NCBI GenBank assembly: GCA_035221665.1
Contig: CM069155.1
Location: forward strand, 29,946,001 to 30,010,000
DNA length: 64,000 nucleotides
Direction of reading: 5' to 3'
Origin: Okamejei kenojei
Taxonomy: Eukaryota
The notes beneath the pieces were generated by a model. It made no database searches and had not been told where the DNA came from. It saw nothing but the letters and a program-made list of their open reading frames with translations. A program made the position numbers and the translations under genes. Positions 1 through 63,257 of the stretch are shown here, one piece after another. Within the stretch, counting starts at the first letter, position 1. Every line of letters begins with the position of its first letter.

Positions 1-131
1 AGCAGAGTGAATATTGTTTTGAATAATAACATGATAATATGGCCTAATTAATCACAAAGAAACCAAAGCAAAATTCTCCATGGAACTGCCAGCATTATGG
101 ATCTGTGAATTCTCCCTTGGTGGAGATTCAA

Positions 132-292
132 TTTCGGGTCGAGATCCTTCTTCAGTCCTAGTCTGAAGAAGGGTCTCGACCCGAACGTCACCCATTCCTT
201 CTCTCCAGAGATGCTACCTGTCCCACTGAGTTACTCCAGCATTTTGTGTCTATCATCAGTTTAAACCAGCATCTGCAGTTCCATCCTACACA
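132..292. repeat. Penelope-end short repeat, partial fold-back dimer
   Basis: tttcgggtcgagatccttcttcag followed by ctgaagaagggtctcgacccgaacgtc...gagttactccagc. Confidence 0.85.
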
Positions 293-2331
293 TTCCTTCT
301 CTACACATCTATCCTTAAATACCTCATAATTCTATCAAAGTAAACTTTGGCATACTTGTTGAAGCAAATATAATATTCCAACAACATTATTTGGATAAAC
401 AATAGGGAATTCATAGAACAACGGTTTAATATGAAGGAAGAAAAATGTTTTCAAATAATTCAAACAGAAATGTATCACATAATACTTGATATCTGGTACA
501 TCATAATTTTAATAAATAACATAAATCCTAAATGATAAAAATATCTTTATACCTGCTTATATTGACAATATTAGGTCCGTCTCCAACACACTGAAACAGG
601 AGAGGAGGTTTGAAGGGCTGATTGATACGAAAGACACACATCAAATACAAAAATCAATTATAGCAATCAGCTTCTGACTGGCCCCTGGGAAATCCTACCT
701 TATTAGATACTGCAAAAATAAATCATAAATCACCGAGCAACTGGGAATGTGTTAACGGCAAAGGTCCTTTGCAATGAAATAATTTGAAATCATGAGAATT
801 TTTGGCACCTTAACACATTCACTTCAGCTACCCCCTGACAAAACCAATGCTGATATGAGAGCCTGAGCTGCACATGCCTACCAGTATATACAACAGTCAT
901 TGGCACAAAGTTTGGAAACAATAGTCCATTAGTGAGTAGGACATAATCTGAGTCCAACCTAAAATCACAAAATCCTGAACTCTATATATCTGTACACTAA
1001 ATGTAGATTTCTGTTAATAATAATAATCTAGTTTTCGCAGTAGCAAACTATGATTTTGGAACAAGATTTACAAAAATCCACTTTCTATTATTGGACTGAA
1101 TTGTAATACATATCATCCCAATGAGCCCTAAACCTCTGGTCCGTGCAGCCATATTTAATAATAACAAGCAAAAGACAAACTGCTGGAGGAGGAGTGACAG
1201 AAAACATTGAATTTGAACCTTTCAAACATCGTCTGTCTCTTTGCCCCCACAGATGCTGCCTGACCAGTTGTGTTCTGCAATGAATACAGTCCAACAACAG
1301 GCACCTGATATCACTTCTCCACAGCTGGCCAAGCAGTGCCTGCATTATAGCTGGTCTGCCAAGTTAAAAGATTGTTGTACTCTGGAAATCATATCCCCCC
1401 TCCTCCTCCAATTCACACCTGCCACGTTATGAAAGAGTGCATTTCCCATTGTGGAGAAGCAGCTCCCAGAACAGGAACTGGAAATCACAGGATGGTTGGC
1501 CAAGTTGACTTGAGACAAGAGGGACCCAAATCCACAAACTAGTTGGACCATATTTAGTCCGAGCTAGAAATTCAAGGAACAGCAGATGCTGGAATATTGT
1601 GCACAGCACAGTGCTGAAGTAACTCAGTGGGTCAGGCAGCATCTCTGAAGGACATGGATCAACGATAATTCAGGTCAGGATCCTTCTTCAAACTGTAATG
1701 AGACGGTGTCTAAAGAAAAGACCCGACCAGAAAAGTTGCCTAGCCATGTCCTCTAGAGATGCTGAGTTACTCCAGCGTTTTGTGTTCTATTCAGTCTGAG
1801 TTTATAAGTTAGTGATACTGTGGATACTATGGCAAGAATGTGCATTACGGACCATGTTCAGGTTCACTGATCAGTTATTGAATATTCAACATGTCAGTCC
1901 AGAGAAAGAGAAACAAGAGACAGACTCAATGCAGCCCTGATTCCCTGCCTCTTGTCAGATTCAAAGCTCCCCCCCAAACTCATGATCCTTCGAGGTGAAT
2001 ATCAGTGGCCCTCCCACCTTCCCATTCAATTGGTCTAACTGGGACAACTTTCTAAAAGGCCACAGCAGGGGAATAACTAACACATCAGCAAGCCAGAGCA
2101 GTAGTGAAGAACCTTAACAGCAGCCACTGAAGGCCAACGCTTTCTTTCTAAAGAAGAAACCGACCTTCATGAGCAGAGAATCCTTGATTTCGGGAGCCCG
2201 GCAATTACATCTATGATTGTCCCAAAAGGGACACGAGACAGATAGTTAGCGCCAAAGTATTGTATGAATAACAGTGATTCCGAGTGTGTGAATACAGCGG
2301 CATTTGCATTGAGATCCAACTTGTATTCTTT

Positions 2332-7449: not shown

Positions 7450-7660
7450 TGGATCGAGAGTGGCAGCTCTGGAGTCACATTTAGGCCAGACCAGGAAGGG
7501 GTAATAGATTTCTTTACCTTAAAAATATCAGCAAACAAGATGGATTTTTTTAAACCACACTCATTTTTCCAGACCTCCATTGTTAATAATTAAATAATAA
7601 ATTTACCAGCTAACATTATGGGGTCTGAACTCAAGGCCTTGAATTACAAATCTGCACTTT
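7450..7660. mobile_element. Ancient LF-SINE-like / CR1-associated repeat
   Basis: ctggagtcacat.taggccagaccagg.aagg...agatt resembles my recollection of that consensus; not verified by search. Confidence 0.4.
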
Positions 7661-13512: not shown

Positions 13513-14203
13513 GCTGCTGTCCCACTTACGTGTCCTTGGCACGCTAATTACGCGACCTTGTGGTCGCGTTGAGGTGCTACGGTCCCGCGAAGGTCGCGCA
13601 CGTCTTCATGCGCCCGCACAGCCGTCTGGAGCGCGTGACGTCATTTGAAGATGGACGCAAAATGCAGGAGTAACTCAGCGGGACCGGAAGCATCTCTGGA
13701 GAGAAGCAATGGGTGATGTTTCGGGTCGAGACTCTTCTTCAGTCTGAAAGAAGGGTCTTGACCCAAAACGTCACCCATTCCTTCTCTCCAGAGATGCTGC
13801 CGGTCCTGCTGAGTTACTCCAGCATTTGTGTCTATCTTCAATTTTCTTGGCCCGCTCTGGGAGTAGGAGTGGGGGCGGATCCGGACCGCAACAGCCGTGA
13901 GCCCCAGGCCGAGCTCAGCGATCGTTTGCCTGCTTCTGCTGCTGTTGGAGGAGATGTTACGTCGCGCCAGGGTCTTGGGCCTGTCCCACTTAGGCCGTCA
14001 GTTACGCGACAGGCCATTGGTGAACGAAGATTTAGTTCCCTACAAAAATTTCGTAGCCCGGCGCGATGTCGCGCACAACTACATACCCCTCCGCGCTTCT
14101 CAGTGGGACCAGCCCCACGCTGCCATACGATGCCCGTGCGCCTCAACGCAACCACGAGGTTGCGTAATTTGCGTGCCAAGGACACGTAAGTGGGACAGGC
14201 CCT
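13513..14203. mobile_element. Non-autonomous TIR DNA transposon (MITE-like), composite
   Basis: About 65-bp TIRs (ctgtcccacttacgtgtccttggcacgc... / ...gcgtgccaaggacacgtaagtgggacag); TTAA on both flanks (13509-13512 and 14204-14207). Confidence 0.85.
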
Positions 14204-17700: not shown

Positions 17701-17901
17701 TTACGATACAGAAAAATAATATCTTGAGGGGAAAGAAAGTCAAAGTAAGGGAGCATAGAATCGAGCATGTCTATGACACGGTGAAAAGTCAGTTTATCTT
17801 TCTTGAGATGTCACCCCAAGAACAAGGCAACTAGGTCGACACAAAAAAAAAATGGAGTAATTCAGCGGGATAGGCAGCATCTCTGGAGAGAAGGAATGAG
17901 T

Positions 17902-17929
17902 GACGTTTCGGGTCAAGACCCTTCTTCAG
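17902..17929 (-). ncRNA. Putative minimal hammerhead core in a dispersed Penelope-end repeat
   Basis: CUGAAGA-A-GGGUCUUGACCC-GAAA-CGUC. Confidence 0.55.
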
Positions 17930-17986
17930 ACTAAACCATCATCTGCAGTTCCTTCTTACACAAGGCATCTTGGTCTCTGGACTTAC

Positions 17987-20649: not shown

Positions 20650-23600
20650 TTTCAAAAAAGCATTGAAGGCAGAAGGTAGTGGTGACTGGGAGATTCTATG
20701 ATTGGAGGTCTGTGACCAGTAATGCAAGGATCAATACTGCACCTCTGTTGCTTATGATATGTATCAATGGTCTGAATGAAAATGTAAGTGATCTGATTAA
20801 CAAGCTTGCACATAAGATAAAAAATGGGGTTGTTGTTCATAATGAGGAAGGTTATCAAAGGGTATAGCAGAAAATGAATCAGTCGGAATTTAGGTAGCGT
20901 TGGTGAGCACTTCGGGACCAGTGATCACAATACCATTAGTTTCAATATAATTATGGAGAGTCAGAACTGGACCTAGGGTAGAGATTTTTGATCGGAGAAA
21001 GGCTAACTTTGAGGGAATGCGTAAGGATTTTAAAGGAGTGAATTGGGACACTTTGTTTCATGGGAAGGATGTACAAGAGAAATGGAGGACATTTAAAGGG
21101 GAAATTGTAAGAGTACAGAATCTTTATGTCCCTGTTAGGTTGAAAGGAAATAGTAAAAATTGGAAAGAGCCATGGTTTTCAAGGGAAATTGGACACTTGT
21201 TTCGAAAAAAGAGAGATATCTACAATAATTATAGGAGGCATGGAGTAAATGAGGTGCTAGAGGAGTATAAAGAATGTAAAAAAAAAAGGATAACAAGGGA
21301 TAAAATTGGACCATTAGAGAACCAGAATGGACAGCTATCTGCAGAGCCAAAAGAGATGGGGGAGATATTGAACAATTTCTTTTCTTTGGTATTCACCAAG
21401 GAGAAGGATATTGAACTCGGTGAGTTAAGGGGAAAGAGTAGAGTAGCTATGGAAACTATGAGATTCAAAGAGGAAGAAGTACTGACACTTTTGAAAAATA
21501 TAAAAGTGGATAAGTCTCCAGGTCCTGACAGGATATTCCCTAGGACATTGAGGGAAGTTAGTGTCGAAATAGCAGGAGCTAAGACAGAAATATTTCAAAT
21601 GTCATTAGAAACGGGAATAGTGCCGGAGGATTGGCGTACTGCGCATGTTGTTCCATTGTTTAAAAAGGGTTCAAAGAATAAACCTAGCAATTATAGACCT
21701 ATTAGTTTGACGTCAGTGGTGGGCAAATTAATGGAAAGGATACTTAGAGATAATATATATAAGCATCTGGATAAACAGGGTCTGATCAGGAACAGTCAAC
21801 ATGGATTTGTGCCTGGAAGGTCATGTTTGACAAACCTTCTTGAATTTTTTGAAGCGGTAACTAGGGAAATTGATGAGGGTAAAGCAGTGGATGTTGTCTA
21901 TATGGATTTCAGTAAGGCCTTTGACAAGGTTCCCCATGGAAGGTTGGTTAAGAAGGTTAAATCTTTGGGTGTTAATGGCGGAGTAGCAAGATGGATTCAA
22001 CAGTGGCTGAATGGGAGATGTCAGAGAGTAATGGTGGATGGCTGTTTGTCAGGTTGGAAGCCGGTGACCAGTGGGTGCCTCAGGGATCTGTGTTGGGTCC
22101 ACTGTTGTTTGTCATGTACATCAATGATCTGGATGATGGGGTGGAAAATTGGATAAGTAAGTATGCAGATGATACTAAGATAGGTGGTGTTGTGGATAAT
22201 GAAGTAGATTTTCAAAGTCTACAGAGAGATTTGGGCCATTTGGAAAAGTGGGCTGAAAGATGGCAGATGGAGTTTAATGCTGATAAGTGTGAAGTGCTAC
22301 ATCTAGGCAGGACAAATCAAAATAGGACGTACATGGTAAATGGTAGGGAATTGAGGAATGCTGTGGAACAGAGGGATCTAGGAATAACTGTGCATAGTTC
22401 CCTGAAGGTGGAATCGCATGTAGATAGGGTGGTAAAGAAAGCCTTTGGTGTGCTGGCCTGTATAAATCAGAGCATTGAATATAGGAGTAGGGAAGTAATG
22501 TTAAAATTGTACAAGGCATTGGTAAGACCAATTCTGGAGTATGGTGTACAAATTTGGTCGCCTAGTTATTGGAAGGATGTCAACAAAATAGAGAGAGTAC
22601 AGAGGAGATTTACTAGAATGTTGCCAGGGTTCCAGCAACTATGTTCCAGAGAAAGGTTGAACAAGTTAGGTCTTTATTCTTTGGAGCGCAGAAGGTTAAG
22701 GGGGGACTTGATTGAGGTCTTTAAAATGATGAAAGGGATAGACAGAGATGACGTGGATACGTTTTTTCCCCATTGAGGGTAGGGAAGATTCAAACAAGAG
22801 GGCATGACATGAGAATTAAGGGACAGAGGTTTCGGGGTAACGTGAGGGGGAACTTCTTTACTCAGAGGGTGGTGGCTGTGTGGAATCAGCTTCCAGCAGA
22901 AGTGGTGGAGGCAGGATCGATTTTAACATTTAAGAGTAAAGTGGATAGGTATATGGACGTGAAGGGAATGGAGGGGTATGGTCTGAGTGCAGGTAGATGG
23001 GACTAGGGGAAAACAAATGGTCGGCACGGACTGGAAGGGCCGAGAGGGCCTGTTTCAGTGCTGTAATTGTTATATGGTTATATGGTTAGAGAAGAAATTG
23101 AGTTTAATCTGGACGAGAGTGAGGTGTTGTATTTCGGGAGGTTAAATGCAAGATGAAAGTTTATAGTAGATAGCAGCAACATGAGATGCATCGATGTAGA
23201 GAAGGATCTTGGGGTATAAGGAAGGGTCCCAAAACATCACCCATTCCTTCTCTCCAGAGATGCTGCATGTCCCGCTGAGTTCCTCCAGCTTTGTGTGTGT
23301 ATCTTGGGATATAAACCTCTGTACCAAGGAACAGTGAAAAGCTTTAAAGAGGGTGCAGAAGAGATTCAACAGGATGTTCCCTAGATTGGAGAGTATTAGA
23401 TACAAGGAGATGTAGGATTATTTTGGATTATTTTATTCTGGAGGTTGGTGGTTGAGGAACAAATTGATTGAAATATATAAAATTATGAGAGGCACAGATA
23501 GGGTAGATAGTCGGAAATATTTTTTTCCCCCCAGGGTGGAAATATCAAGTATTAGGGGTTGTTGGTTATGTAAGAGTGCCGTTTATTTTAATATAGAGAG

Positions 23601-25003: not shown

Positions 25004-25891
25004 CGGTTACCCATGCTAACATACCATTTATGGATGCCTCTTATTAATGTCACACTCCCTTTCAAATATCTCACCACCAACCCCCTGTTCAAAAGCCCAC
25101 CTTTGTCCTCCGTGCCTTGCAAACTAACCCCATTTCCAGCCACTCCTTCCTTTACAAAGTCCTGGGAATGGAGGGGGCAGTACATACCATGTTCATTTAC
25201 TTTAAGTTAATTCTTGTAAAAATACTATTCCAGTATACTATTCCAAATAGTTGTTAATCATACCTGCTGACAATGTTGCTGTAAGTGCTCAAGAATAAAC
25301 TGATGCACACCATCCACTCCTCCCTGCATTTCTAGATAAATGCTGACAGATGTTGCACTAGTGTCTTTCATAAGTTGAATTTAATTAATTCTTCAAACAT
25401 ATATTTTCTGAGTAAATTGGTGTTATCTATTGCAGTTGACTACTCTAGGCCATATGGCCCATCTCACATTGAATTCATCAACTGATGCAGTGTTAAAGCC
25501 TTAATTAATCTAAAACATAGATTCAGGGTGCCATATGTTGAAGAACAAGCAAACAGTCATAAAGTGCTCCAGGAACTCAGTGGGTCAGGGAGCATCTCTG
25601 GAAGGCATGGGTATGTGACGTTTTGGGTTAGGACTTATCCAGCACCAGCACTTTGTGTCCTTTTTATAAACCAGCATCTGCTGTTTCTGTATCAGTGAAC
25701 AAAAGGTCATCTGTTGATCACTTGAAATTGAGTTTGAATGCAGTGGCAGGAGAGCAGGAAGGAAGGGTGCCAGGTTTATGATAACTATAGAAAACCTATA
25801 GTTCCAGAGATATCGACAGGACTTGCGTACATGGCTAAAAACAGAAAGGAATTACTGGACAATAGTTGGGACATTTGCTGCATGTACATAC

Positions 25892-28530: not shown

Positions 28531-28744
28531 CTGCAGGAAATAGTCACACAGTTGTTATACAACACATCAATTTTAGCTTTTTTTTTAAAACATGTGAATT
28601 TAAAGAATGTTAAAACATTTAATACATTTTATGACAATTTATTAGACACAAAACAATGCCTGATCTCATTTCAGAAAGCAAGTGCACTTGCAGTTTTGTG
28701 TTGCCAGTATTTATTTGGTTATCACAATAAACACAGTAGACTTT

Positions 28745-29801
28745 AGATGGTTACACAAAAAGCTGGAGAAACTCAGCGGGTGCAGCAGCATCTAAGGAGC
28801 GAAGGAGATAGGCGACGTTTCGGGTCGAGACCCTTCTTCAGACTGGTCAGGGATCAGGGAAACGAGAGATATAGACGGTGATGTGGAGAGATAAAGAACA
28901 ATGAATGAAAGATATGCAAAAAAGTATCGATGATAAAGGGAACAAGCCATTGTAAGCTGTTTGTGGTGTGAAAATGAGAAGCTAGTGCGACTAGGGTGGG
29001 GGAGGGAGATAGAGATAGAGGGAATGCCAGGGCCCGAGGGCTGAGGGAGAGGTGGGAGGGGGAGGAGACAGCAGGGGTTAACAGAATTGAGAAAATTCAA
29101 TGTTCAAGCCCAAAGGATGCAGGCTCCCCAAGCGGAATATGAGGTGCTGTTCCTCCAACTTGCGGTGTTGCTCACTCTGGCCATGGAGGAGGCCCAGGAC
29201 CGAGAGGTCGGATACGGAATGGGAGGGGGAGTTGAAGTGCTGAGCGACCGGGAGGTCGGGTTGGTTTTTGCAGACCAAGCGGAGGTGTTCGGCGAAACGA
29301 TCGCCAAGCCTCCGCTTGGTCTCACCGATATAGATCATCTGGCATCTGGAGCAGCGGATGCAGTAGATGAGGTTGGAGGAGGTGCAGGTGAACCTCTGTC
29401 GGACCTGGAAGGACTGCTTGGGTCCCTGAAAGGAGTGGAGGGGGGAGGTGAAGGGACAAGTGTTGCATTTCTTGCGGTTGCAGGGGAAAGTGCCCGGGGA
29501 AGGAGTAGAGCGGGAGGGGAGGGAAGAATTGACAAGGGAGTCGCGGAGGGAGCGGTCTTTGCGGAAGGCAGACAGGGGGGGAGATGGGAAGATGTGGCGG
29601 GTGGAGGGGTCACGTTGGAGGTGGCGAAACTGGCGGAGGACTATCTGTTGTATTTGCCGGCTGGTGGGGTGAAAGGTGAGGACCAGGGGGACTCTGCCCT
29701 GTTTGCGAGTGGGGGAATGGGGAGAGAGGGCAGTGTTGCGGGGTATGGAGGAGACCCTGGTGCGAGCCTCATCAATAGTGGGGGAGGGGAATCCCCGTTC
29801 T
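28745..29801 (-). mobile_element. Penelope-like element, 5'-truncated: RT thumb/linker, GIY-YIG endonuclease and 3' terminal repeat
   Basis: Open frame about 29801 to 29078: RVPLVLTFHP...GTFPCNRKKCNTCP...NLIYCIRCSRCQMIYIGETKRRLGDRFAEH...GLN; terminal repeat with hammerhead-like core. Confidence 0.93.
28814..28841 (-). ncRNA. Putative minimal type I hammerhead ribozyme in the Penelope terminal repeat
   Basis: Minus strand reads CUGAAGA-A-GGGUCUCGACCC-GAAA-CG-UC: both core boxes, helix II, palindromic ACGU helix III and a GUC cleavage triplet. Confidence 0.7.
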
Positions 29802-29999
29802 TTAGATGTATTAGATTAACTGGTAATATAAACCTTACAACATTATGAAAAACCATTCTTTCTGTAAGAGCCGCAGTGTGGTGTAACATTGATTCACTAG
29901 TTCCCTATGCAAATCCACATTTGCCTTTGAATATTTCTTGGACAGCATTATTTTGGATATATCAAAAAGCAGCTAGTTAGGTCTGACTGACATACTTAC

Positions 30000-30090: not shown

Positions 30091-31226
30091 CTGCAAATAA
30101 ACAGAGACAAGTTCTGTAATTTACTGTTTGAATACTGCAAGAATACATACAAAACAAATTTTTTTAAAAGTATAGCCAAGTGTTCAGGATATTTACCCTG
30201 TGTGAGTGACTTTACAATGTAGGCCAAGACACTTTCACATTGAATCCCATGTCAGTTGTGATAAAAGAGACCCTCCGATTGTGTTTCAGTGCCCACATTA
30301 CAGAGAAACTAGCCACAATGTGAAATAAAATGACTTTGCTTTCATTTAGTACAATTAAAGATGTCATTTAATCTGATTAACGCACAGTCCGTATGAAATT
30401 GTACAGTGGTAGAAATAGCTATCTCAAAAATTACAGTCTTTTTTTGGTTGGAGAGAATTTAATAACATTTCTTGTCATTCTACTGGGCTAAGAAGATACT
30501 GACATTGAAAAAATATTTTTTTTTAAGTTAAAAATGGCTAGTGAAGTAGCTAACGTATATTTTTTTTAAAACTGCCAGAAGAATTCAGCCAGTCATGCAG
30601 TATGTGGAAGAAAAGGGATAATTGATATTTCAGGTCATGACCCAGCACTAGGACTGAAAGCACAGAGGGAAGAAAGCCAGTGTATAGAAGTGAGAGGTGG
30701 GGTATGAGACAGAGGCTGGTTGGTGATAGCTGAAATTAGATGGTGTGGTGGACAAATGGAGTAGGCAATGGAAAGGAAGAAATTGCTCAGAAAGGGGGTG
30801 GTAGGTGATAATTGTAACCAGAGAAGGGAGGGATAAAGGGTAGATGGGGCCAGGTGGGGAGGGGGATAACTTGGCAATGAGGTTGGAGGAATGGAAAAGG
30901 TGAAGAAAGGTAGCTATACTGGGTAGACTGGTGAGAGTGGGACACAAAGTCTTGGGGAGTTGGTTACCGGAAACAGGAAAATTCAATGTTTATAATCTAA
31001 TTAGTAGCTTTGGCCATATGAAGTGACGGTTTTAATTAGTAGCTGAAGATTTAATAGTAACTCACAAAAAGTAACCAAACACCACAGCAACAAAATAAAT
31101 CAACTTTCCACAACCGTCTGAATGGAGTACCATTTTTGAGGACTGTAATGAGTGAATGATCATTACATATACAGCAATAAATTAGTGAAATTCTAAAGAA
31201 GCTTTCCATGTATATTTTATATGTAC

Positions 31227-33027: not shown

Positions 33028-35352
33028 TAAGGGGCAGTGCTGGACCTCCTGTTAGGAAATGAGGCAGGTCAGGTGACGGAGGTATGCGTTGGTGAGCACT
33101 TCGGGACCAGTGATCACAATACCATTAGTTTCAATATAATTATGGAGAGAGTCAGAACTGGACCTAGGGTGGAGATTTTTGATTGGAGAAAGGCTAACTT
33201 TAAGGGAATGCGTAAGGATTTTAAAGGAGTGAATTGGGACACTTTGTTTTATGGGAAGGATGTAGAAGAGAAATGGAGGACTTCTAAATGGGAAATTGTA
33301 AGAGTACAGAATCTTTATGTCCCTGTTAGGTTGAAAGGAAATAGTAAAAATTGGAATGAGCCATGGTTTTCAAGGGAAATTGGACACTTGTTTCGAAAAA
33401 AGAGAGAGATCTACAATAATTATAGGAGGCATGGAGTAAATGAGGTGCTAGAGGAGTATAAAGAACGTAAAAAGAATCTTAAGAAAGAAATTAGGAAGGC
33501 TAAAAGAAGATTTGAGGTTGCTTTGGCAAGAAAGGTGAAAGTAAATTCAAAGGGTTTCTACAGCAATATTAATAGCAGAAGGATAACGAGGGATAAAATT
33601 GGACCATTAGAGAGCCAGAATGGACAGCTATCTGCAGAGCCAAAAGAGATGGGGGAGATATTGAACAATTTCTTTTCTTCGGTATTCACCAAGGAGAAGG
33701 ATATTGAACTCTGTGAGGTAAGGGAAAAAGTAGAGTAGCTATGGAAACTATAAGATTCAAAGAGGAGGAAGTACTGATACTTTTGAAAAATATAAAAGTG
33801 CATAAGTCTCCAGGTCCTGACAGGATACTCCCTAGGACATTGAGGGAAGTTAGTTTAGAAATAGCAGGAGCTATGACAGAAATATTTCAAATGTCATTAG
33901 AAACGGGAATAGTGCCGGAGGATTGGCATACTGCGCATGTTGTTCCATTGTTTAAAAAGGGTTCAAAGAATAAACCTAGCAATTATAGACATGTTAGTTT
34001 GACGTCAGTGGTGGGCAAATTAATGGAATGGATAATATATATAAGCATCTGGATAAACACGGTCTGATCAGGAACAGTCAACATGGATTTGTGCCTGGAA
34101 GGTCATGTTTGACAAACCTTGAATTTTTTGAAGCGGTTACTAGGGAAATTGATGTGGGTAAAGCAGTGGATGTTGTCTATATGGATTTCAGTAAGGCCTT
34201 TGACAAGGTTCCCCATGGAAGGTTGGTTAAGAAGGTTCAATCTTTGGGTGTTAATGGCGGAGTCGCAAGATGGATTCAACAGTGGCTGAAATGGGAGATG
34301 TCACAGAGTAATGGTGGATGACTGTTTGTCAGGTTGGAAGCCGGTGACCAGTGGGGTGCCTCAGGGATCTGTGTTGGGTCCACTGTTGTTTGTCATGTAC
34401 ATCAATGATCTGGATGATGGGGTGGAAAATTGGATAAGTAAGTATGCAGATGATACTAAGATAGGTGGTGTTGTGGATAATGAAGTAGATTTTCAAAGTC
34501 TACAGAGAAATTTGGGCCATTTGGAAAAGTGGGCTGAAAGATGGCAGATGGAGTTTAATGCTGATAAGTGTGAAGTGCTACATCTTGGCAGGACAAATCA
34601 AAATAGGACGTACATGGTAAATGGTAGGGAATTGAGGAATGCTGTGCAACAGAGAGATCTAGGAATAACTGTGCATAGTTCCCTGAAGGTGGAATCGCAT
34701 GTAGGTAGGGTGGTAAAGAAAGCCTTTGGTGTGCTGGCCTTTATAAATCAGAGCATTGAATATAGGAGTAGGGAAGTAATGTTAAAATTGTACAAGGCAT
34801 TGGTAAGACCAATTCTGGAGTATGGTGTACAATTTTGGTCGCCTAATTATAGGAAGGATGTCAACAAAATAGAGAGAGTACAGAGGAGATTTACTAGAAT
34901 GTTGTCTGGGTTCCAGCAACTATGTTACAGAGAAAGGTTGAACAAGTTAGGTCTTTATTCTTTGGAGCACAGAAGGTTAAGGGGGGACTTGATTGAGGTC
35001 TTTAAAATGATGAAAGGGATAGACAGAGTTGACGTGGATAAGCTTTTCCCATTGAGGGTAGGGGAAGATTCAAACAAGAGGGCATGACATGAGAATTAAG
35101 GGACAGAAGTTTAGGGGTAACGTGAGGGGGAACTTCCTTACTCAGAGGGTGGTGGCTGTGAATGAGCTTCCAGCAGAGGTGGTGGAGGCAGGATCGATTT
35201 TAACATTTAAAAGTAAAGGACGGGAAGGGAATGGAGGGGTATGGTCTGAGTGCAGGTAGATGGGACTGGAGGAAAACAAATGGTCGTCACGGACTGGAAG
35301 GGCCGGGGGGGCCTGTTTCCGTGCTGTAATTGTTATATGGTTATATGGTTAT
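33028..35352 (+). mobile_element. Young 5'-truncated CR1-clade LINE, copy 2 (end of APE domain plus RT, several frameshifts)
   Basis: ORFs 33037..35087 with LDLLL...SDH and YADD; near-identical to copy 1; same tail. Confidence 0.96.
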
Positions 35353-39720: not shown

Positions 39721-39852
39721 TGTGTAGGAAGGAATTGCAGATGCTGGTTTAAACTGAAGATAGACACAAAAAGCTGGAGTAACTCAGCGGAACAGGCAGC
39801 ATCTCTGGAGAGAAGGAATGGGTGACGTTTCGGGTCGAGACCCTTCTTCAGC
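39721..39852 (-). repeat. Penelope-end short repeat. Further copies at about 1575-1790, 5636-5730, 11142-11253, 17838-17960, 23219-23300, 25560-25690, 26989-27110, 44857-44945, 49200-49320, 58338-58430 and 59860-60080
   Basis: Shared consensus gctggagtaactcagcggg.caggcagcatctctggagagaaggaatgggtgacgtttcgggtcgagacccttcttcag. Confidence 0.88.
39824..39851 (-). ncRNA. Putative minimal hammerhead core in a dispersed Penelope-end repeat
   Basis: CUGAAGA-A-GGGUCUCGACCC-GAAA-CGUC, identical to the core in the Penelope element. Confidence 0.55.
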
Positions 39853-42800
39853 ACTGTTGAACAAGTTGGCCCCTTCAGAACCACCACCATCACACCCCAC
39901 ATGGATTTCCCTGTATTGTGCCAATGGCAGGATCAACCAAATGGAGAGGCCAGTGCAGCATACAATATCTTCATTATGTGGCCTGGCGTTACATCTGTGC
40001 TAAATATGATAGGTTCAGGGGAGATCTAACAAGATAGATACATGAAAGACATTGCTGGTTATGAAATCATATTCTTGCATAATCTTTATTCTCATGGCCT
40101 CAGATGGTCCCCCAATACACCATTATCACATAAAGTCCAAGACCATGCCAGGAGTAGTCAGACAAACCTAAAAATGGCTATTTGCTGAAGTCATCCCACA
40201 GACCACAGCCATGTTAAATAGAGAAAGCAACAGAAGTGAGACAGTGTAAGTGATCATGGAGCCCATGGATCAGATTAATGCTCTGTACACCTGCAAATCC
40301 AGACACGTCACTTGTGCTGGATAACCAAGAACTGTTGAGAAGTATAATCTCAGAATATTACTTTCAGCAACCAACTTCTGCAAGCCTTGTAAATGATCGA
40401 TTGTCCCCATCACAGAAGACAGTGCCCAGCCAATTTACTTGGTCCAGATTATTAATTATAGAAAACATTGAATGCAAATGTTTTGCCCTACAAAAGGTAT
40501 TATGGTCTGGAAATTTTACTGCACATGGCTACAGAATACTTTATTATCTAAGGAACTGTGAATAGAGCCAAAAACTGTGCAATAATTAACAAGCATCTTC
40601 TGTTCCAAAACTTCCATACTATGAAGGAAGGCAGACCACTGATAAAACAGCTGAGTATGTTTGAGCCCATTGCCATTTTGAACACGTGCTTCAATACCCT
40701 GGCACTGAAATTATTTACATCTTTGTCTTTATTTGATTAATGTCATGCCAATAGCCTTCATCTCTGAATTCCACGTAAACATTTGCAACAATAGATCCTG
40801 CCCTTGGAATGCAAGACAATTAAATCCTAACAATTATCATCCCCTCATCAGAATGTGGAAGGTGGCCCATAATTCCCTACGCAGTACTCACAATAAGGTT
40901 TTGTCAGGTCTTACCTCAACCTTGCCCAAAATATAGACAGAACAGTTTCATTCCGAAGACAAGGATGACTATTCTTTAAAAAAAAATCACAACAAAATTA
41001 ACTAAGAATCTGAGAAAATTCTCCACTGGCAAGAATCATGTTGAACACAAAAGAAAATAGGTTATTTAGTTATCGATCATCTTAGCCTCAAGGTACTGAA
41101 CAAAATGTACCAAAGGAAATTGCCCTAGATCCAAGTATCTCCTATTGCTTCAAGACCATCCCTCGGTCATGCGACGTCTCTCATATGAATGTGCATTTAT
41201 TCCGTTTCATTCACAGCTCTTTAGATCACAAGGTAGTTTGCAGCCTTATGCAGCAATACATGGATAACACAAATGCACACTCACCTAATTGCCTGTTTGA
41301 ATAATTCACCTTTTAATAATTTATACAACAGACTGAATAAACTTGTTATACCAATAAGAAGAGCTTCTCAAATTCACACACCAATCGTTGGTTTTCGTTA
41401 AATCACCAATCTTAATTTACAGGCTTGTTGCTAAAACTTGGCAAGTAACATCTGCACCACACAAGCATCAGACAACTATCTTCAATAATAGGGTGTATAA
41501 CATGTCTTCTTGGCTACCATTGTAGACAACAATACCAATAGTATTATTTACTACTATACTACAGCCTCAACCCTCACAATATCTTAACTAGACAAAGAAA
41601 CACCATGGCTCTAATGAACAGATTAGAGGCTGTGAATTCTGAACATGGTGACTCGCTCCCTAACTTAACAAAGCCTTTCCACCATTCACAAAACACAACT
41701 CAGGAATTGAGCGATATATTCTCCTTTTGCCTAGAGATGATTGACATTCATATATCAAAGTTCCACGCCATCCAGGGCAATGCAGAAATCTGTCTGAAAG
41801 ATTCATTCCTTTCACCAAAAGCATAGTGTGTACCATTTACAAGATTTATCACAGATACAAAGATCTCTTTGATAGTACTCTTCTCAAATTTGTGACCTCT
41901 CCCATCAAGGTCAGCAGGTACATGGAATGCCACCTGCAATTTCCTCAAGTCATACAGTCTAAAAAGAAAATGTATCACACCTTCATTACTCCAATAAAAA
42001 CCTTGCAACTCCCTAACAAATCTTTGTAAATATCTTCACAAAACACCTCAGAAATTCCTAAATGATGGTTCATCATCACCTTCGCAAGGATATTTGGCCA
42101 TGACCAATAAATCCAACATATCCCTTATTGGATGAATATAGAAAATACACAATTTAATGAATATCCATAATAGAAAGCATATTGAATTGTTTTCTTAATT
42201 TGGAAAATATCTCCAAGATACTTTATAACCCAAACAGAACATTATAAAAAAATGAGCAAATACATGGTCAAGAGTGTTAAAGTGAGTGAGGAGGAAGATT
42301 TAAAGCAAAATCTTCACTTTCTAATCATTCTCAACTTGGAAATCTGATCAAGTGCATCGTTAAACATAAACATGTAGGCTTTTCTTTGCAGTTATACAGC
42401 CGATTGCCCAATGCGACTCTTGATAGGCATTTGAAATCTTTTGTCACACAAATTAAAAACTCATCATACCAACAAAAAAACTTCCCACATTCACTCATCA
42501 ACTGTTGGATTTATTCTAATCACAAGTCATAATTGCTTTCCTTCGGTTGATCCCTGTGCACACGACTGTTGAGCAATGCACTTCCTTTCATTTGCAAACC
42601 TTCCCACAGTTTACTTCTCCATGGACAATGCCGGTGGATCGCCATGTACTATTCCTTCAGATCCATCGTTACACGAGCCGTGCATTCCCCAGCCCTGAAT
42701 CTTAATGCCGCCGAACCTGGTCAGATTTCCAGACCTTTGCAGTGCCTCCACAGCCCATTGCTAGTCCTCGTAACCCTCTTGGCTCTTGGACCACTCGGAC

Positions 42801-43038
42801 CCCAACGTCCACATTCAGGCTCCCATCGTCGCTTCCCACATCACTCTTTCATCCCGGGCTCCAGTGTCAGGCGCGGTGCTGCTCGCCGCTGACAGGTGGA
42901 CTCACTCGGAAAGTCCTGCAGCTCCGAGGCTCCTATGACTCCCTCCCTCCACTGACCATTCCCAGTCCGAGCTCACACACGCCTTCCAGTCACTGCGCGC
43001 GCCCCCTCCTCACCCACCCCATCCTTGCAGCCGCTCAC

Positions 43039-43075
43039 CATTGTGATGGACCCAAGCAGGTTTAAGCAGCTTCAT
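43039..43075 (-). CDS. HIRA: HIRA coding exon 1 (MKLLKPAWVHHNG)
   Basis: ATG at 43075; peptide matches the HIRA N-terminus (human MKLLKPTWVNHNG); GTGAG donor; 37 bp; lies in a CpG-rich patch. Confidence 0.95.
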
Positions 43076-44573
43076 GCTGGGCCGCGGTACCTGGGACTCA
43101 AGCACCACCCTCTCGGTCTCGGTGTCACTGTCCCAAGGCGACCCGGCCTCTCGCACCGCCGGAAGGGAGCAACACACTCAACGCTCCCCAGAAACTCCGG
43201 TGCCCCCGGCACAACGGCTCGGGAAAAGAATCAAGGTCAAAACAACCGTTCCGAGCGCAAAATAAAACCCAAAAAGTTAGATTTAGTGCATAATTTTCAA
43301 ACTCATCCGTAACTAATTTTAATTTAGAATAACTGAAAGGTCTGTGACCATCAAAACCTTCGGCAACCCGAAATCTCTAGCCTATTATCTGGTTGTAACT
43401 TGGTGAGCATCCAACAATATGAACTATATTGCCAGTGCCCTATTTTCATGACGGATAAGTGTTCGACCAATTGCTGCCTATAATGGATTCTACATTTATA
43501 CTCTTTTTAAAAAATGATTTGCCTTTAACTCAGTATATTCAGGGGACATTAAGCCAAGCAAGTAAATTTTGAAGTGCATCCATAATTTAGAAAGTACAAC
43601 TTCTGAATGTGTGCACGACAAGATTCCAAAGATAAAAGAGAATTGGCGCAGATTATCTGAATTAATGGTTTCGGTCAGGAGGTAAATACCGCCATCACAA
43701 TGTGGACCAAGCTCCTTTATTGTCTGGAAATGTGTAAGTTCACCTGAAAAGTTTAATGTCTCATTTAAATATATTTATTCCAAAAGTACAGCACTCCTAA
43801 ATGATGTCCAACTTACATCTAGTGCTCAATTCACCTAACGTTGTCATTCAGTGATGCATACACTGAAATGCCATATGGAAGATTATGTAATGGGAACAGG
43901 CAACATGACATATGTACCTACTACAATGAATGAACAAGGTAAATTATTCACTACAGCGAATGACTTTGTGGTATAAAAAAAATAGACATAGAAAGCAAGT
44001 AACTGTTGCCTCACGGTGATAAAACTATATTAGTGTCAATGCAAGAAGCTGGCTAATATTAACATAGGGAGTTATCTTGTTCACATGATAGTGTTTTACT
44101 ATTGTATAATTTCTGTTACTTCACTTTGTCCCAGCACTCTTTAAATATTCGTTCTTTCTTTATGAAAGCTCCAAGATAATTCTTCGTTGCTCTCCTTCAA
44201 GCAGTTAAGCAAATTTTATTTTAATGTCATGGCAAATTCTAAAGTCTAATTTCCAAAGCATTTTCATCAAAATTTAGATGCTCTATATTTCGATACAAAC
44301 TTGTCGGTAGCTTCGTTTACAGGTTCAATTATGATGTTAATGTGCTTGTTTTTTTTTTTAAATGAACAAATGTTCAATTGTAAACATACCACTGTTGTGG
44401 TTCTGAACTTTGTCGGGTGGGAACATTAGTAATGACCTGTGTTCGCAAGTGGGACATCATTATGTGGGGAGAAACCGCTGGTCGTGGTGCGCCGCTTTAA
44501 ACTGCTCGGGTTGAGTGGACTGGTTGGAGAAAAGGGTGGCAACGATCTCAAGGTGACTGCGTTCCTGATTAAC

Positions 44574-50203: not shown

Positions 50204-50558
50204 GTAAATATTGTCATAAAACGTATAGTACGTTTATGTGAAATGTACTTCTGATTAACAAGTTTTCAGAAAAGTTGCTATTCCCTCCAATGTTTGTCAA
50301 TGCTTTTAAAAAAGCAGTGTTAAAAATATACATAAGTAAATGTACCAACAATGTTAATTGGCAACTTAACTGGAATGAAAATCATTACAAATCTGCACAA
50401 TTTGTAAATATGAAACAATTGCCAAAAATGCTAGAAATGCTGAAAAGAGAATTAATTAACGTTTCAAGTTGAAGCCAGGTTTGAACTGAGAAAGAGGGAA
50501 AATAAATTGGTTTCAAGTTGCAGAAAAGGTGGGGGTTGAACATGTAGTACAAAGGGAA

Positions 50559-51082
50559 GATAGACATAAAAAGCTGGAGTAACTCAGCGGGACAGGCAGC
50601 ATCTCTGGAGAGAAGGAATGGGTGACGTTTTGGGTTGAAACCCTACAGACTGGTTAGGGATAAGGGAAACGAGAAATACAGATGGTGACATGGAGAGATA
50701 AAGGACAATGAATGAAAGGTGCAAAAAAGTAATGATAATAAAGGAAACGGGCCATTCTAAGTTGTTTGTAAGGTGGAAATGAGAAGCTGGTGTGACTTGG
50801 GTGGGGGAGGAATAGAGAGAGAGAGAGAGAGAGAGAGAGGGAATGCCGGGGCTACCTGGTGAGATAAATCAATATTCATACCACTGGGCTATTCAATGTT
50901 CTTTATCTCTCCACATCACCGTCTATATCTCTCGTTTCCTTTATCCTTAACCAGTCTGAAGAAGGGTCTCGATCCGAAATGTCACCCATTCCTTCTCTCC
51001 AGAGATGCTGCCTGTCCCGCTGAGTTACTCCAGCTTTTTATGTCTATCTTCGGTTTAAACCATCTGCAGTTCCTTCTTACAC
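50559..51082. repeat. Inverted pair of Penelope 3' ends, with (GA)n at about 50813-50838 in the spacer
   Basis: 50559-50713 is the reverse complement of about 50891-51048. Confidence 0.88.
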
Positions 51083-57160: not shown

Positions 57161-60100
57161 TCCGAAAATAGACGCAAAATGCTGGAGTAACTCAGCGGGA
57201 CAGGCAGCATCTCTGGGGAAAAAACATGGATAGGTGACGTTTCGGATCAGGGTTAGACTCAGCGGGACAGCCAGCATGTCTGGATAGAATGAATGGGTGC
57301 TGTTTCGGGTCGTGACCCTTTTCAGTTTGAGATTCAGGGGAGAGGGAGGCACAGAGATTAAGGAGCAGCGAGAGAGGATGTCGCAGAACTCTTGTCGGAG
57401 GAGCGAACTTCTTCAGAGTAGGCACACCTTGAGGAGATGTTGCAGTGAAAGCACGTTAAAATGTGTAGGAAGGAACTGCAAATGCTGGTTTACACCGAAG
57501 ATAGACACAAATTGCTGGAGTAGCTCTGCGGGACGGGCAGCATCTCTGGATAGAAGAGGTCTGGTGAAGGGTCTCAATGCGAAACATCGCCCATTCCTTC
57601 TACCCAGAGATGCTGCCTGTTCCGCTGCGTTCCTCCAGCATTTTGTGCCTATCGGCGGACAGAGAGGGGCGGATCATTGTTGGTGTTCTCTGCTCTCTAT
57701 ATATTTCAGGATTGTATAGACCAATTCGATACATCTTGAGATTGAGTCTAGTGTTTCCATTTTTTGTACTTTAATAGAGTTTGAGAGGGAGCAGATTGTC
57801 ACTGTTCACATGAGCAAGAACAATCTTTTTAAAGCGGAGATAGACACAAATTGCTGGAGTAACTCAGCGGGTCTGGCAACTTCTTTGGAAAAAAGGAATA
57901 GGTGACATTTCAGGTCAAGACCTTTCTTCAGTGCCAACCTGAAACGTCACCTATTCCTTTTCTCCAAAGATGATGCCTGACCGGCTGAATTACGCCAGCA
58001 TTTTGTTGCTTATCTTCGGTGTAAACCAGCATCTGCAGTTCCTAACTAAATGTTGATTGGCAGCATAAACATGAAATCAGAAAAGTCTATGTGGTCACTT
58101 AAACCCAGTTTCTTTATAATTTATCTTCCCTTTACATTTCTGACCTCCTCAGGACCAGTTCTATCTCATTCCACCCGAGCCTCACATAATCAACTGAAAC
58201 TATGTGTTATCAATTCTTGTGATTCGCTCACAGCCTGTAACTCACTCCTGAGTTTTGTTTTAAAGATATAACATAGAAACAAGCCCTTCAGCTCACCACT
58301 TCTACGCCAACCATCAATCACCCATTCTCACTACTGTCTGAACAAGGGTTCCGACCTGGAACGTCACCCATCCTTTTTCTCCAGAGATGCTGCCTGACCC
58401 ACTGAGTCACTCCCGCAATTTGTCTATCACACATTCTCACTAGTACTGGATTAGTTTCTCATCCAGTCTTTGCACATTAGGAGCCATATACGGAGTGTCA
58501 ATTCACCTACAAACATGAGTGTCTTTGGAATGTGAAAGAAAACCGGAGTGCACATAGGAAACCCGCACAGTAACAGGGAGAACATGCAAACTACACACAT
58601 GAACCCGGTTCTCTGGCGCTGTGAAGCAGGTGTTCCACCAAATGCATTACTGCCCCCCTGCCCGATTAAGTATCATTGTATATATAACTCTACCAAATCC
58701 CTGCATCAGATGTGGAACATACTCACCCATGGCTGAGACCTTCTGTGATCTCTCAGTACAAGACAGCACTGCATCAAACAATTCTCTAACATGTTTGTTT
58801 GTGTGGGCCTCTTCAATGTCTCCTATATTTCCACTTTAACATTAGCAGTAATCTGACAAAGTGATTAGTCTCACCACTTTTGTAACTGCACTAATATGTC
58901 CTCATGTGGCTCAACTTCAATTTTTTTTGGTAACAATAATGCAGAGTGCCCTGATATATTTTGCTAAATCACATGATAGTTGCTATTGTTCTTGGTTCAA
59001 GGTCTTTTCTGCTGTAACTCTCCCACAGCAATCAAAGGAACTTCACTTCAAAACCTGTGCCATGGTTACATTTTGCCCATAATGCCTTCCAGGAAATGTT
59101 AAATCTAATTTAATAGTTCCACTATTCCAAAGAGTTGGAAAATCCTAATTTACTTCTCACACTCCATTCCTTCTGCAAACTTAATCTGTTAAAAGTGTAC
59201 GATTGGCATTACCAAAGCACCATTTAATTAATCTAAGGTCCCCTCCCACTTCTTCCAACTTCAGGACTTTAGGATTTAGGCTTCCTTTGAAATATTTCTC
59301 TTGATAAATGAAGAATTTCTTCTCCTACTCAATGCCTAATCCAGTGGAGTATAAAGGCTACCCACAGGGTGCTCTGGCTCCACAGCTGAGTCTTTCTTCA
59401 AGTACACATTGGCAAGGGGATAACTTTGCTGCATTGCTAAAACCTGAAATTATTCCAAGAAGTACCTTTGATTATTGCGGCTTGTGGCATTCCAGATGTG
59501 GGCAATGTTACAAAGGAAATAGTACAATGAATAACAGACCCACCTTCCCTTTCCTGAATACGGCCTTGCAGTGAATGAGGTTGGTGTTGCAAAGCAACAT
59601 CACAGCAGGATATCGTCTCCATTAAATTTCCTGTATTTAAGTGACCGACTGTCATATTGCAGTAACATTTCACCTTCTCATCGAAAATCCCGTTAATTTG
59701 ATCAACATTTAGGTCACCTAAAAATGGTATAATCTAACCATGTAATTCTTAGAAATTTCGTTGTGACAGACATACAGTCAGGAAATGTGGGTTTCAAATG
59801 CTTCATTTCTACTAAGCTGAGTTTTCTGTTTGTAAGAAGCCAACAAGGTAAAGAGGAGAAACAAGAGACTGTAGATGCTGAAACTTTTAGCAAAACAACA
59901 AACCACTGGAGGAACTCAGCAAGCCAGGAAGTGCTGTGGAGAGAAGTGGATGGATGACATTTCGGATCAGGACACTTTTTCAGATTGAGAAATTAGTCTG
60001 AAGAAGGGTCCCAATCTGAAATGTCCTCTGTCCATTTCCCTCCACAAATGCTGCCTGACTTGCTGAGTTCCTCCAGCAGTTAGTTCAATTCCATTTTCAT

Positions 60101-60727
60101 ACTTATATTACATCACTTATAACAAGTAGTTGCATTTAAATTGGCTCCTATGTTACCAAGAAGCAGCGGTCCAATGGACTAGAAACTTCAAAAACCCTTA
60201 GGAAAACTGTAGTAAGTACCTCAGGTTGAAGAAATAAAGAAGCTTGACGCAGGTGGTTTTGCTAACATTAAATCAAAGGTGAAGAAGGTGGAAAAGTTCA
60301 CACTATTGTGACTGAATATACACTACAGCAGCCCAATAGGAATCCTTCATTCCATTCATCATTACAATAAAGGTGCTCAACTCAGCTCACCAACAACTGT
60401 CTTTCTATCTTTCGATCCATGCCCAATGCACCAGGAGTTCACAGGGACTCTCTTCCCAAATGGGTTGAACTCATATGCCACTTCCAAAATTCCAATGCAC
60501 AAAGGGCACTGGCCATACTGTATTTACATTACTTCTAGTTTAATAAAATTATGCAATATAGGAACTTCTCATTAGAGTATGCACCTACTCTACTCCAACC
60601 AACTGTGGGTAGAAAGGGAATCAATTAACAAAAGGTTAAATTCTCAAGTTTCTAAGTTATGAGCCATAAATATTATGGATGAAGGCAGTAAATGGCTACG
60701 GTTCCAATTTCAGGTATTCATGGTGGT

Positions 60728-61115
60728 GATAGACACAAAATGCTGGAGTAACTCAGCGGGACAGGCAGCATCCCTGGAGAGAAGTAATGGTTGACGTTTC
60801 GGGTCGAGACCTTTCTTCAGACCGAACAAAGTCACGGGAAAGGGAAAAAAGAGATATAGACGATGATAGAGAGAGATATGGAGCAAATGAATGAAAATAT
60901 GCAAAACGGTATCAATGATAAAGGTAACAGGCTAGGTGAGAACGAAAGCTAATGTAACTTGGGTGGGGGAGGGATGGAGAGAGAGGGATTGCAGGGGTTA
61001 CTTGAAGTTAGAGAAATCAATTCTCATTCCCCTGGGTTGTAAGCTGCCCAAGCAAAATATGAAATGTTGTTCCTCTAATTTGAATTTAGCCTCACTCTGA
61101 CAATGGAAGAGGCCA
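60728..61115 (-). mobile_element. Penelope 3' fragment (end of endonuclease plus terminal repeat)
   Basis: Colinear with 28745-29190, including the hammerhead-like core at about 60793-60820. Confidence 0.85.
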
Positions 61116-63257
61116 TTGGCGGTGAAGTCACTTATACATCAGTACCTTTGAAGACTGATTCTATGATCTTCAATGGGCAAGTATAGGTAAAGAGTGCCAG
61201 CTGATAGTCCTTCCTCTGGAAATAATTATTGCCTTTTTTTCACGCGTTCTATTGATTATTTCCAGCTGTTCACCCATTGTTTTTTGCTTTATGCTGCTTC
61301 CAGTAATCGATAGCAGCTTCACCTCAAGTAGTAGTCTGCATCCTGGTGGCTGGCTGCAGAATTTTCACTGGTTAGTAGTATGGCATCTGAAGTACAGTAA
61401 ACTTCTGAAGTTTAATGCATATGATGTTATTTTATGAGATAAAGTTTGATAAAATCCACTTAATAATTGATACTTATTATGTTGGCGATAATGAATACTT
61501 CTTCAATGTCTCACAGAATTGGAGTTATTGCACTCCATTAATACAATTCTGTTGACCTGGAGAATTATAAATTTCATTTCTAGCACAGTTAATGTTCTTT
61601 TCTCTGGGGAGAAATTAATCTTAAATTACCAAAGATTCACCAAGCTGGCATTGTTTGAAAGATAGATATTAGGTTATACAATTATAGTAGACATAACATT
61701 GTTCTAACCTAATCTTGTGTTGCAGCTATGCTAAAAAAAAAACAGCCATAATCTGTTGTACCATGGCTGCCTCAATCATACAAAGTATAAAGAATTAATT
61801 ATATGAATCAATGAATCTTTGTGAAAGAAAACCTGACAAGATCAAAAATGAGCATGAATGAAGGAGAATTCTTTGAGTGTTCTGATGTACAACAAAGTGT
61901 TGAATTTGTAGCCAGCCGCTGTGGTAAATAAATCACATGATTGTCCTGCACCCATTGTTTATTGTCTATTGTATTTTCACATCAATTGATAGGTGTGGCT
62001 TGTGATCAACTCAATTTAAACATTTAAAAATATGAAGCCAAAATCCAACTTGCATTGAACACGACAACTTCTGCTTTTCACACCGGCAGGATAAGGAGTA
62101 GGCAACCAAATTACTGTAATGAGACTGCATGTTTTCATTTTCACTGTTATTAAACAATTTGGGAACCCCACACTTCCAGATTTCTCAATGCCGAAACCAG
62201 ACCACTACAGTATGGCATGTGCCACCTTGCTAAAACCTATGCAACTGTTCAATATCTTTTCTATTTTCAAGCATTGTCCTTATCCAGATGTTGACAGTTT
62301 GGCCAACTTGTAGGTCTTCATGTTGGTTGTTGCCAGATATGAGTTGTTTTTTACAGCAGACCATTCACTATGGAAACAAGTTTACTGCCATACTTTGATA
62401 CACTTATCTTATTTGTCTTAATGATAATTATGTACATGCCCCATTGTACGTACCAAATACATCAATCCAGTCTTCGTGATGTTGCATTAAGTTGTAGGCT
62501 ATATGTTCATGCTCAACGATACAGAATTTTACAACTATGATTCTATTATACATGAAAAGAACAGATTCAAATCAAAATCAAAATAAAATGTAACAGACTG
62601 CAAATGGATCATTGACAAAACAGAGCATCCTGGGTTGTATGTTACAAGGATCAATAATCTATTGGGTCTCTTACACCCAAGAGATGCCACAAAGATAATG
62701 ACAGTAGAGTGACCCAATTCTGCAGAAAGGACAATCATGAGATCAGGGTAATTTGATGTTCTCTTACCCTTGCAATGAGGCTGTAACCCTTTAACAGCAT
62801 CTAAAAATAGATGGTACAGAACGGAGACGAAACAACCTCTTAAAATGTTGTCTCTGTTTTGCTAATGGTGATTCACAAAGAATCTTAATGATTAATATCT
62901 TCACTCATTTTGCTGCATAGTTAACATAATTCCCATTTAAAAAATTACAATGAGGATCTTCATCCCAAAACAGCCAGACATAAAAACAGTTTTTATCCAC
63001 GAGTAGTTGCTCTACTCAACAGCCAAAAATCTGTCGCCTTCCTTTGATCTGGTATTTTGTTGGTTCACGTGCTTGATCAATGGTGTTTTATCATTAATGT
63101 TTTATTATTAATGTTTAGTGTTTTTGGAGTCATTCGTAACTGTCACTGTATGTCATGTTGCTCCTTGTGGGCGGAATCCCAAGGCAAATTCCTTGTATGT
63201 GAATACTTGTGATACGTTTACTTACTTACTTAGTTATTTGAATAGTTAACAACATTG

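Follow-up and report, generated by a model that had tools for sequence, protein, structure and literature searches.

Analysis of the window, i.e. the whole stretch of 64,000 nucleotides, revealed that segment 28750–29799 (minus strand) is a dead, 5′-truncated and tailless insertion of a Neptune-type Penelope-like element (PLE), sense-oriented within a host intron, and that its pseudo-LTR (pLTR) bears the minimal hammerhead of the family. The terminal module recurs in the window as short copies, which look like miniature insertions of the same family generated by the PLE reverse transcriptase (RT) and endonuclease (EN), and whose 5′ ends cluster at the edge of the ribozyme. We consider it fairly probable that these are run-off cDNAs, copied from uncleaved RNA whose 5′ end lay at that edge.

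The open frame 29803–29078 encodes a product with 58–65% amino acid (aa) identity to elasmobranch PLE proteins along its full length. The longer proteins most closely related to it are annotated in Mobula, Rhincodon, Hypanus, Stegostoma and Chiloscyllium (58–65%), and the host is therefore a cartilaginous fish. The fragment aligns to residues 664–899 of a full-length relative, P0014 (902 aa; RT + GIY-YIG), with 44% identity. The Pfam GIY-YIG match to the focal ORF is weak (E 0.0013, under the curated cut-off); the catalytic motifs are invariant in alignment A1, which places a C-terminal GIY-YIG endonuclease within the ORF, as in EN+ PLEs. Residues C150, C153, H172 and H188 (CCHH) are also invariant. 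A CX2-5CxxC-type linker is given for Neptune and Nematis (PMC8557442), and in A1 it takes the form C107-x4-C112-x2-C115 (C107 and C112 invariant, C115 nearly so). Located between RT and EN, and accompanied by the CCHH residues, this linker, common to Nematis, agrees with the definition of Neptune. A preprint (10.64898/2026.07.22.740005) reports only Neptune and Poseidon PLEs from vertebrates. The PLE RT is missing from the truncated focal copy and from the window, and is present in homologs P0002, P0014 and P0022. The rest of the EN+ PLE anatomy was recognized as well: a pLTR, an optional 30–40-nt tail, an inverted 5′-truncated partner and a target site duplication (TSD).

The intron that received the insertion (28531–29999, minus strand; GT...AG) is flanked by two WD40 exons of a HIRA-like gene, which match the CAF1B/HIR1 propeller profile at positions 73–99 and then 130–161. 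A PDB search yielded no gene name; we take the gene to be HIRA. The next intron upstream contains an old copy of a different subfamily (30570–30990, minus strand) with a pyrimidine-rich UTR of ~340 nt and apparent last ORF codons. Features of the focal element and of other copies are summarized in Table 1.

Table 1. Coordinates of the focal PLE insertion, its hammerhead and other copies of the terminal module in the window
Feature	Position	Strand	Remarks
TSD, 5′ copy	29800..29808	-	CATCTAAAG; exact 9-bp repeat; equal or better background score 0.3–0.5%
TSD, 3′ copy	28741..28749	-	exact 9-bp repeat
Open C-terminal ORF fragment	29078..29799	-	RT thumb end, linker, GIY-YIG endonuclease; no RT core
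C-x4-C-x2-C zinc-finger linker	29456..29482	-	Neptune/Nematis type; alignment A1; definition in PMC8557442
GIY-YIG endonuclease domain	29081..29371	-	LIY...YIG, Arg, His, Glu, Asn; CCHH-like residues
Pyrimidine-rich 3′ UTR / upstream pLTR part	28846..29077	-	missing from most short copies
CAGT, helix I 5′ strand	28842..28845	-	-4 to -1 of C3; hot spot for short-copy 5′ ends
Minimal type I hammerhead	28814..28841	-	
Core	28841-28835	-	
Extra A	28834	-	
Helix II	28833-28822	-	
GAAA	28821-28818	-	
Palindromic CG	28817-28816	-	
UC	28815-28814	-	cleavage predicted at 28814/28813
Post-ribozyme part of terminal repeat	28750..28813	-	up to inner (tailless) 3′ end
Solo short copy, young, tailed	39721..39853	-	complete core
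Solo short copy	58334..58428	+	starts at -4 straight after 11-bp exact TSD
Second long copy	60724..61222	-	endonuclease remnant and UTR
Pair A, head-to-head	131..293		arms meet at ribozyme edge; tail on + arm
Pair C, head-to-head	1570..1790		arms start -4/-2; 12-nt spacer; tail on - arm; possible 13-bp TSD
Pair G, head-to-head	13645..13844		arms overlap in CAG-T-CTG near-palindrome; no tail
Pair H	17838..17959		complete hammerhead copy (-) and tail-only inverted arm; 16-bp TSD, 2 mismatches
Pair J	25551..25689		older, asymmetric
Pair Q	50556..51080		UTR-bearing arms (about -200, -74); tail on + arm; 11–16-bp TSD
Pair T	57461..57654		arm starts -2 and +36
Pair U	57829..58050		arm starts ~0 and +10 to +20
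Pair W	59856..60087		older subfamily; arm starts -4/-3

Metazoan PLE pLTRs, including those of fish Neptune elements, carry minimal hammerheads (Cervera & De la Pena 2014, PMC4209133). The first-pass annotation had reported a GIY-YIG ORF followed by a terminal repeat with such a motif, and both hold: the minus strand from 28841 to 28814 reads CTGAAGA-A-GGGTC-TC-GACCC-GAAA-CG-TC exactly as it had been given, and the focal copy possesses the core boxes, the extra nucleotide, helix II, the palindromic 15.2–16.2 pairs and the NUH. An extra nucleotide before G10.1 is the normal state of PLE minimal hammerheads; an extra A between A9 and G10.1 is also found naturally in the CChMVd(+) viroid hammerhead. 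Helix I is very short, as previously noted, with 2 bp in the focal copy (U-G and G-C; the third pair is A/C), i.e. below the threshold of at least 3 bp, and 2 bp in 3/4 long window copies, in contrast to the 3–6 bp of most invertebrate relatives. Judged from the sequence, self-cleavage activity is uncertain. All 12 core nucleotides are kept in 9/23 window copies spanning the core, and the window contains six hammerhead descriptor matches; most of its copies are probably single, decayed and catalytically inert.

The invertebrate relatives comprised 80 metagenome loci with endonucleases of 38–52% identity, 48 of which had a matched C-terminus and 600 nt downstream. The motif was found in sense in 18/48 loci, 69–192 nt behind the endonuclease, and in antisense in 0/48 (shuffles 0/960). 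A structure alignment of 15 of the 16 motifs (misaligned L003 was left out) had 93% of its cells paired, with 25 two-sided changes (slid controls 17–44%; shuffles 0/500, a test inflated by the relatedness of the sequences). These changes derive mostly from the 11 invertebrate rows, and the helix II changes of window copies are mostly CpG-type decay. Across window copies, the mean identity of 11 non-CpG core columns was 0.916 vs 0.82–0.84 for base-matched downstream columns (p 0.003–0.012), in a comparison mildly biased by a model seeded with core-bearing copies; loop 2 was among the most variable parts (0.57, 0.67). Helix covariation across the family and a core better conserved than its flanks, two points raised in the first-pass annotation, were thus both observed, and the motif together with the family covariation confirms a PLE whose terminal repeat bears a minimal type I hammerhead. 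An Infernal-type model search gave no match: Rfam detected no hammerhead at the gathering threshold in the window, and none near the motif at E≤10, which is not surprising given that helix III is lacking. The only weak Rfam match, Ocean-VII (E 1.5), was dismissed as chance. Minimum-energy folding z-scores were not significant for 6/6 stretches, and the cofold of two copies contained no symmetric dimer, both approaches being uninformative where a motif depends on a partner or protein. Viral contigs, scanned with a degenerate motif, contained none, and among the best 40 of 237 rows of contig variants none lay inside the ribozyme, so these contribute no covariation.

Two of the invertebrate loci have hammerheads of particular arrangement. 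L003:126 is a near full-length element with a hammerhead (6-bp helix I) ~2.4 kb upstream of the endonuclease end; situated just before the ORF start, it looks like the 5′ pLTR of the element. L026:2030 (minus strand), near an element and on its opposite strand, is a canonical-type hammerhead with a 6-bp helix I, a palindromic loop 3 and no extra nucleotide, and is perhaps a coral-type retrozyme.

The recurrence of the terminal 100–150 bp, previously put at about 20 or more, was borne out by an nhmmer search with a short model (33 matches; 0 in the reversed-window control) and with an extended one (37 matches; 4,271/64,000 bases, 6.7%). All 24 segments with a self-BLAST depth of at least 3 belong to the hammerhead end repeat, which is therefore, as claimed, the commonest short repeat of the window. 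Copies are ~95–100 nt (tailless) or 130–135 nt (tailed) long and form several subfamilies of differing age. The focal copy had been named as the likely source of this repeat, which the data do not support: it has no RT core, upstream repeat or tail, groups only with copy 11252- (support 0.93) and is 61–86.5% identical to the others. The contigs agree, as the majority subfamilies part from it 7 nt behind the cut site. No full-length master element was seen. With roughly one fossil insertion of a single family per 2.5 kb, the window points to a very large natural record of template ends; by extrapolation, if the window is typical, family copies would number hundreds of thousands or more.

Positions of 5′ ends were counted from C3 of the core, with the GUC cut at +28. 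In local alignments, 19/37 matches begin at -4 to +5; when the four long copies are set aside and two with short UTR remnants are not counted, the value is 17/33 (binomial p about 5e-10 vs uniform ends). Fourteen of the 37 start inside or behind the ribozyme, and none of the 37 clearly starts at the cut, since two local alignments starting at +28/+32 extend with the profile to +8/+11. Contigs were available from runs X1 and X8 (organism A; X8 is probably DNA, and X1 possibly the window's own source) and X15 (organism C). Loose heterogeneous ends (agreement 0.30–0.40) pile up at 28843–28845 in all three, with 452 and 765 contigs per row in X1, 97, 94 and 216 in X8, and 560, 584 and 1011 in X15, the purine-rich 28845 row partly reflecting UTRs of other subfamilies. 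Eight rows among the best 18 of 3,341 loose-end rows represent these positions, while 28813/28814 accounts for 0/18. No raw reads of run X21 aligned. The first loose letter at 28843/28844 is G on the element strand in 5/5 rows; it may represent an untemplated G originating from a cap or, alternatively, a helix I variant with GGU, and is not clear in window copies. Among the invertebrate loci, the edge is the starting point of 3/20 second copies (a visual count, with 12/80 loci as queries). The edge reads CCAGTCT, which we take to fit the initiator consensus YYANWYY. The idea of a fish-specific initiator-like start is weakened by the three invertebrate copies, which begin at the same point although their helix I sequence is different. 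Among the openly accessible papers searched, none describes 5′ ends clustered at the ribozyme edge.

The 3′ ends fall at two sites ~33 nt apart, at about +95–100 or +130–135. TSDs of 9–20 bp stand out at 6/19 loci tested (background ≤0.007), four of them short units, and are weak at two further loci; 11/19 have no clear TSD. The TSD-flanked copies imply that short units were, at least in part, inserted as such. Nine head-to-head events were distinguished, with a tail on exactly one arm in 8/9 and on both arms in 0/9 (p 0.02). All the junctions differ, and therefore each pair was formed independently; a MITE-like mobile palindrome was ruled out for the same reason. In 2/6 pairs the arms are not close relatives (ranks 8–18 of 31).

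The boundary, the intact ribozymes within copies, the two 3′ ends, the TSDs and the inverted pairs are the observations on which we base the following scheme. The PLE enzyme would nick the target and begin reverse transcription inside the RNA at either of two sites ~33 nt apart, giving tailed or tailless 3′ ends, as suggested by the ends themselves and by analogy with an Anolis element. RT would then run off the template at its 5′ end, usually 2–4 nt before the hammerhead core. Since the copies keep the whole ribozyme, their templates were not self-cleaved. The template 5′ end may mark either where transcription starts within the pLTR or where an exonuclease is halted by a protein-bound ribozyme. 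Where both nicked strands prime, the two cDNAs, usually one tailed and one not, would join head to head – in pair G, presumably within the near-palindrome. TSDs, tail and inverted pairs support the earlier proposal of an abundant short derivative mobilized by PLE RT/EN. Against run-off copying speak the matches that start inside or behind the ribozyme, the loci without a clear TSD, the pairs with distantly related arms, the missing full-length master, the low share of edge starts in invertebrate second copies, and the situation in Drosophila virilis, whose ribozyme edge is a splice acceptor and not an RNA start. The presence of a complete motif, in sense, within a host intron suggests inert or harmless single copies, which fits the absence of monomer activity in PMC4209133.

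The short copies may instead form a self-propagating, non-autonomous SINE-like family, a doubtful alternative that can coexist with run-off copying. A 130-nt ribozyme-to-tail unit would be transcribed from its own loci, through an internal promoter or as protected host-intron fragments, and copied in trans by the PLE protein, internal RT initiation stopping flank carry-over. Both ends of the units are indeed sharp and short units are flanked by TSDs; pLTRs act as cis signals in trans (PMC3846280); the summed contig depth over the ribozyme bin, which is not a copy number, is ~3x that of the next upstream bin and 8–49x that of the 5′-most ORF bin (three runs); and no long window copy belongs to the subtype which, at the divergence point 28807, is represented by most contigs. 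However, the commonest young short subtype is 92–96% identical to long UTR-bearing copies, and truncated products of autonomous masters therefore explain the short copies equally well. Moreover, the edge is identical in subfamilies of very different age, as would be expected if it stemmed from the mechanism itself, and no SINE Pol III head (tRNA/7SL/5S) was recognized, as the tRNA search revealed no tRNA head on short copies and no Rfam family was found in the window. With a single window as evidence, which is too little for showing short-only subfamilies, the separate SINE-like family envisaged in the first-pass annotation is unproven. A different cause of the boundary would be splicing. In D. 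virilis, a 75-nt intron ends within helix I (PMC4209133), and transcription starts 46 nt ahead of this intron; by analogy, the pyrimidine tract and CAG before the core, present in 2 of the 4 long copies printed, would act as a 3′ splice site, and spliced RNAs, if their upstream exon were heterogeneous but always terminated in G, AG or CAG, would give the impression of ends at -2 to -4. The ends do pile up exactly at the three positions to which an exon end would extend, but copy 58334 begins at -4 straight after its TSD, pairs A, G, H and W join 0–7 nt from the edge, leaving no room for an exon, and the flanks of short copies share no common exon-like sequence. We regard this explanation as improbable.

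A retrozyme cycle, in which dimeric GUC self-cleavage frees unit RNAs that circularize and then retrotranspose, appears highly improbable. It would account for the conservation of the core and helix II; one chondrichthyan is reported to have retrozymes (10.64898/2026.07.22.740005), and a 39-nt direct ribozyme duplication (joint 28845 to 28807), which places two hammerheads naturally in tandem with minimal spacing, was observed in X1 (2 contigs), X8 (3) and X15 (9). This joint nevertheless lies 7 nt behind the cut site, no copy clearly starts at +28, and helix I is reduced in most long copies. Non-LTR retrozymes resemble the window copies in being non-coding and pLTR-related and in having a type I hammerhead; they differ in forming tandem arrays with complete, canonical ribozymes in consecutive units and in their circular RNA (PMC7229834; 10.64898/2026.07.22.740005). 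The window copies are dispersed monomers or inverted pairs with the minimal motif, and no tandem array with complete hammerheads was found among them. The retrozyme-like label given previously was therefore dropped, as copies keep an uncut ribozyme instead of starting after GUC. Two direct tandem clusters do occur (56454–56790 and 57156–57358), in a dense patch of 11 repeat matches at 56.4–58.4 kb; their downstream units start at +11 to +19, lack the core, and are probably template jumps.

The association of a Penelope element and a minimal hammerhead has already been published, and an inverted partner and a one-sided tail belong to the usual anatomy of PLEs. The hammerheads of PMC4209133 share with the present one the CUGANGAH core, the extra nucleotide before G10.1, the G10.1-C11.1 pair, the palindromic 15.2–16.2 and the lack of a helix III loop; they too are mostly single motifs tied to truncated PLEs, with opposite-strand pairs. 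In contrast, the alignment rows consulted contain no cartilaginous fish, ~4,000–9,000 motifs per genome are far sparser than six per 64 kb, and the text covered describes no sharp 5′ boundary. In the Poseidon PLE of Anolis carolinensis, the tail is delimited by two internal sites of RT initiation, cutting and extension affect both target strands, and the template is predominantly uncleaved RNA; the protein is a predicted dimer, and RNA-seq showed no cleaved ends (Frangieh et al. 2024, PMC11167929). The two systems have in common two 3′ ends a tail-length apart with the hammerhead upstream, the copying of uncleaved RNA and the use of both strands. The Anolis element, however, belongs to another clade without a zinc linker, and PMC11167929 maps RT starts and not the 5′ ends of genomic copies, whereas no ORF start was mapped here. 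The inverted pLTR insertions known from Penelope (Arkhipova et al. 2013, PMC3846280; Craig et al. 2021, PMC8557442) are likewise head-to-head 5′-truncated copies with a tail at one end, 8–10-bp TSDs, junction palindromes and solo pLTRs. Here, unlike there, the whole insertion often consists of two ~100–130-nt arms meeting at the ribozyme edge, and several solo copies have TSDs of their own, while Penelope solo pLTRs are ascribed to recombination or deletion. Our search of openly accessible papers found none that deals with this repeat in a shark, skate or ray; the family may be listed in Repbase or Dfam.

PLE hammerheads are dispensable for insertion in vitro (PMC11167929). The record of the window indicates that uncut RNA with a 5′ end at the ribozyme edge was copied, and it bears on the origin of head-to-head PLE insertions, for which self-priming on the antisense template has been proposed (PMC3846280). 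Speculatively, and we think this unlikely, the hammerhead of this lineage would have largely ceased to be a nuclease, its helix I having eroded to 2 bp, and would now serve as a bound, 5′-terminal handle of the retrotransposition particle, which fixes the RNA 5′ end, as start site or exonuclease stop, and whose palindromic ACGU stem brings two RNAs together within a dimeric enzyme complex, resulting in head-to-head insertions. If so, any transcribed copy, intronic ones included, could be recopied as a promoter-free 130-nt retroelement, and the family might rank with the most abundant vertebrate repeats of ribozyme origin. Against such a handle, Naiad PLEs make inverted insertions without canonical hammerheads (PMC8557442), and the cofold gave no symmetric dimer.

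Several other elements were distinguished within the window. A separate decayed GIY-YIG fragment (51363–51610, minus strand) is 36–48% identical to homologs, and no terminal repeat was detected with it. Two long RT-bearing non-LTR retrotransposon copies, presumably CR1-like, occupy 20951–22776 (Pfam RVT_1) and 33031–35087 on the plus strand, and fragments at 45072–46365 (minus strand) resemble the ORF of another non-LTR retrotransposon. A CpG-rich island (42251–43500) separates the HIRA-like gene (minus strand) from a mitochondrial ribosomal protein exon (49797–50141, plus strand; Pfam MRP-L28), a head-to-head gene pair that we assume to be the one known from other vertebrates. Finally, two ray proteins annotated as host-gene isoforms, P0003 (DIPK1C) and P0020 (CHID1), contain the same endonuclease as the focal element, and these are either annotation artefacts or exonized PLE pieces.
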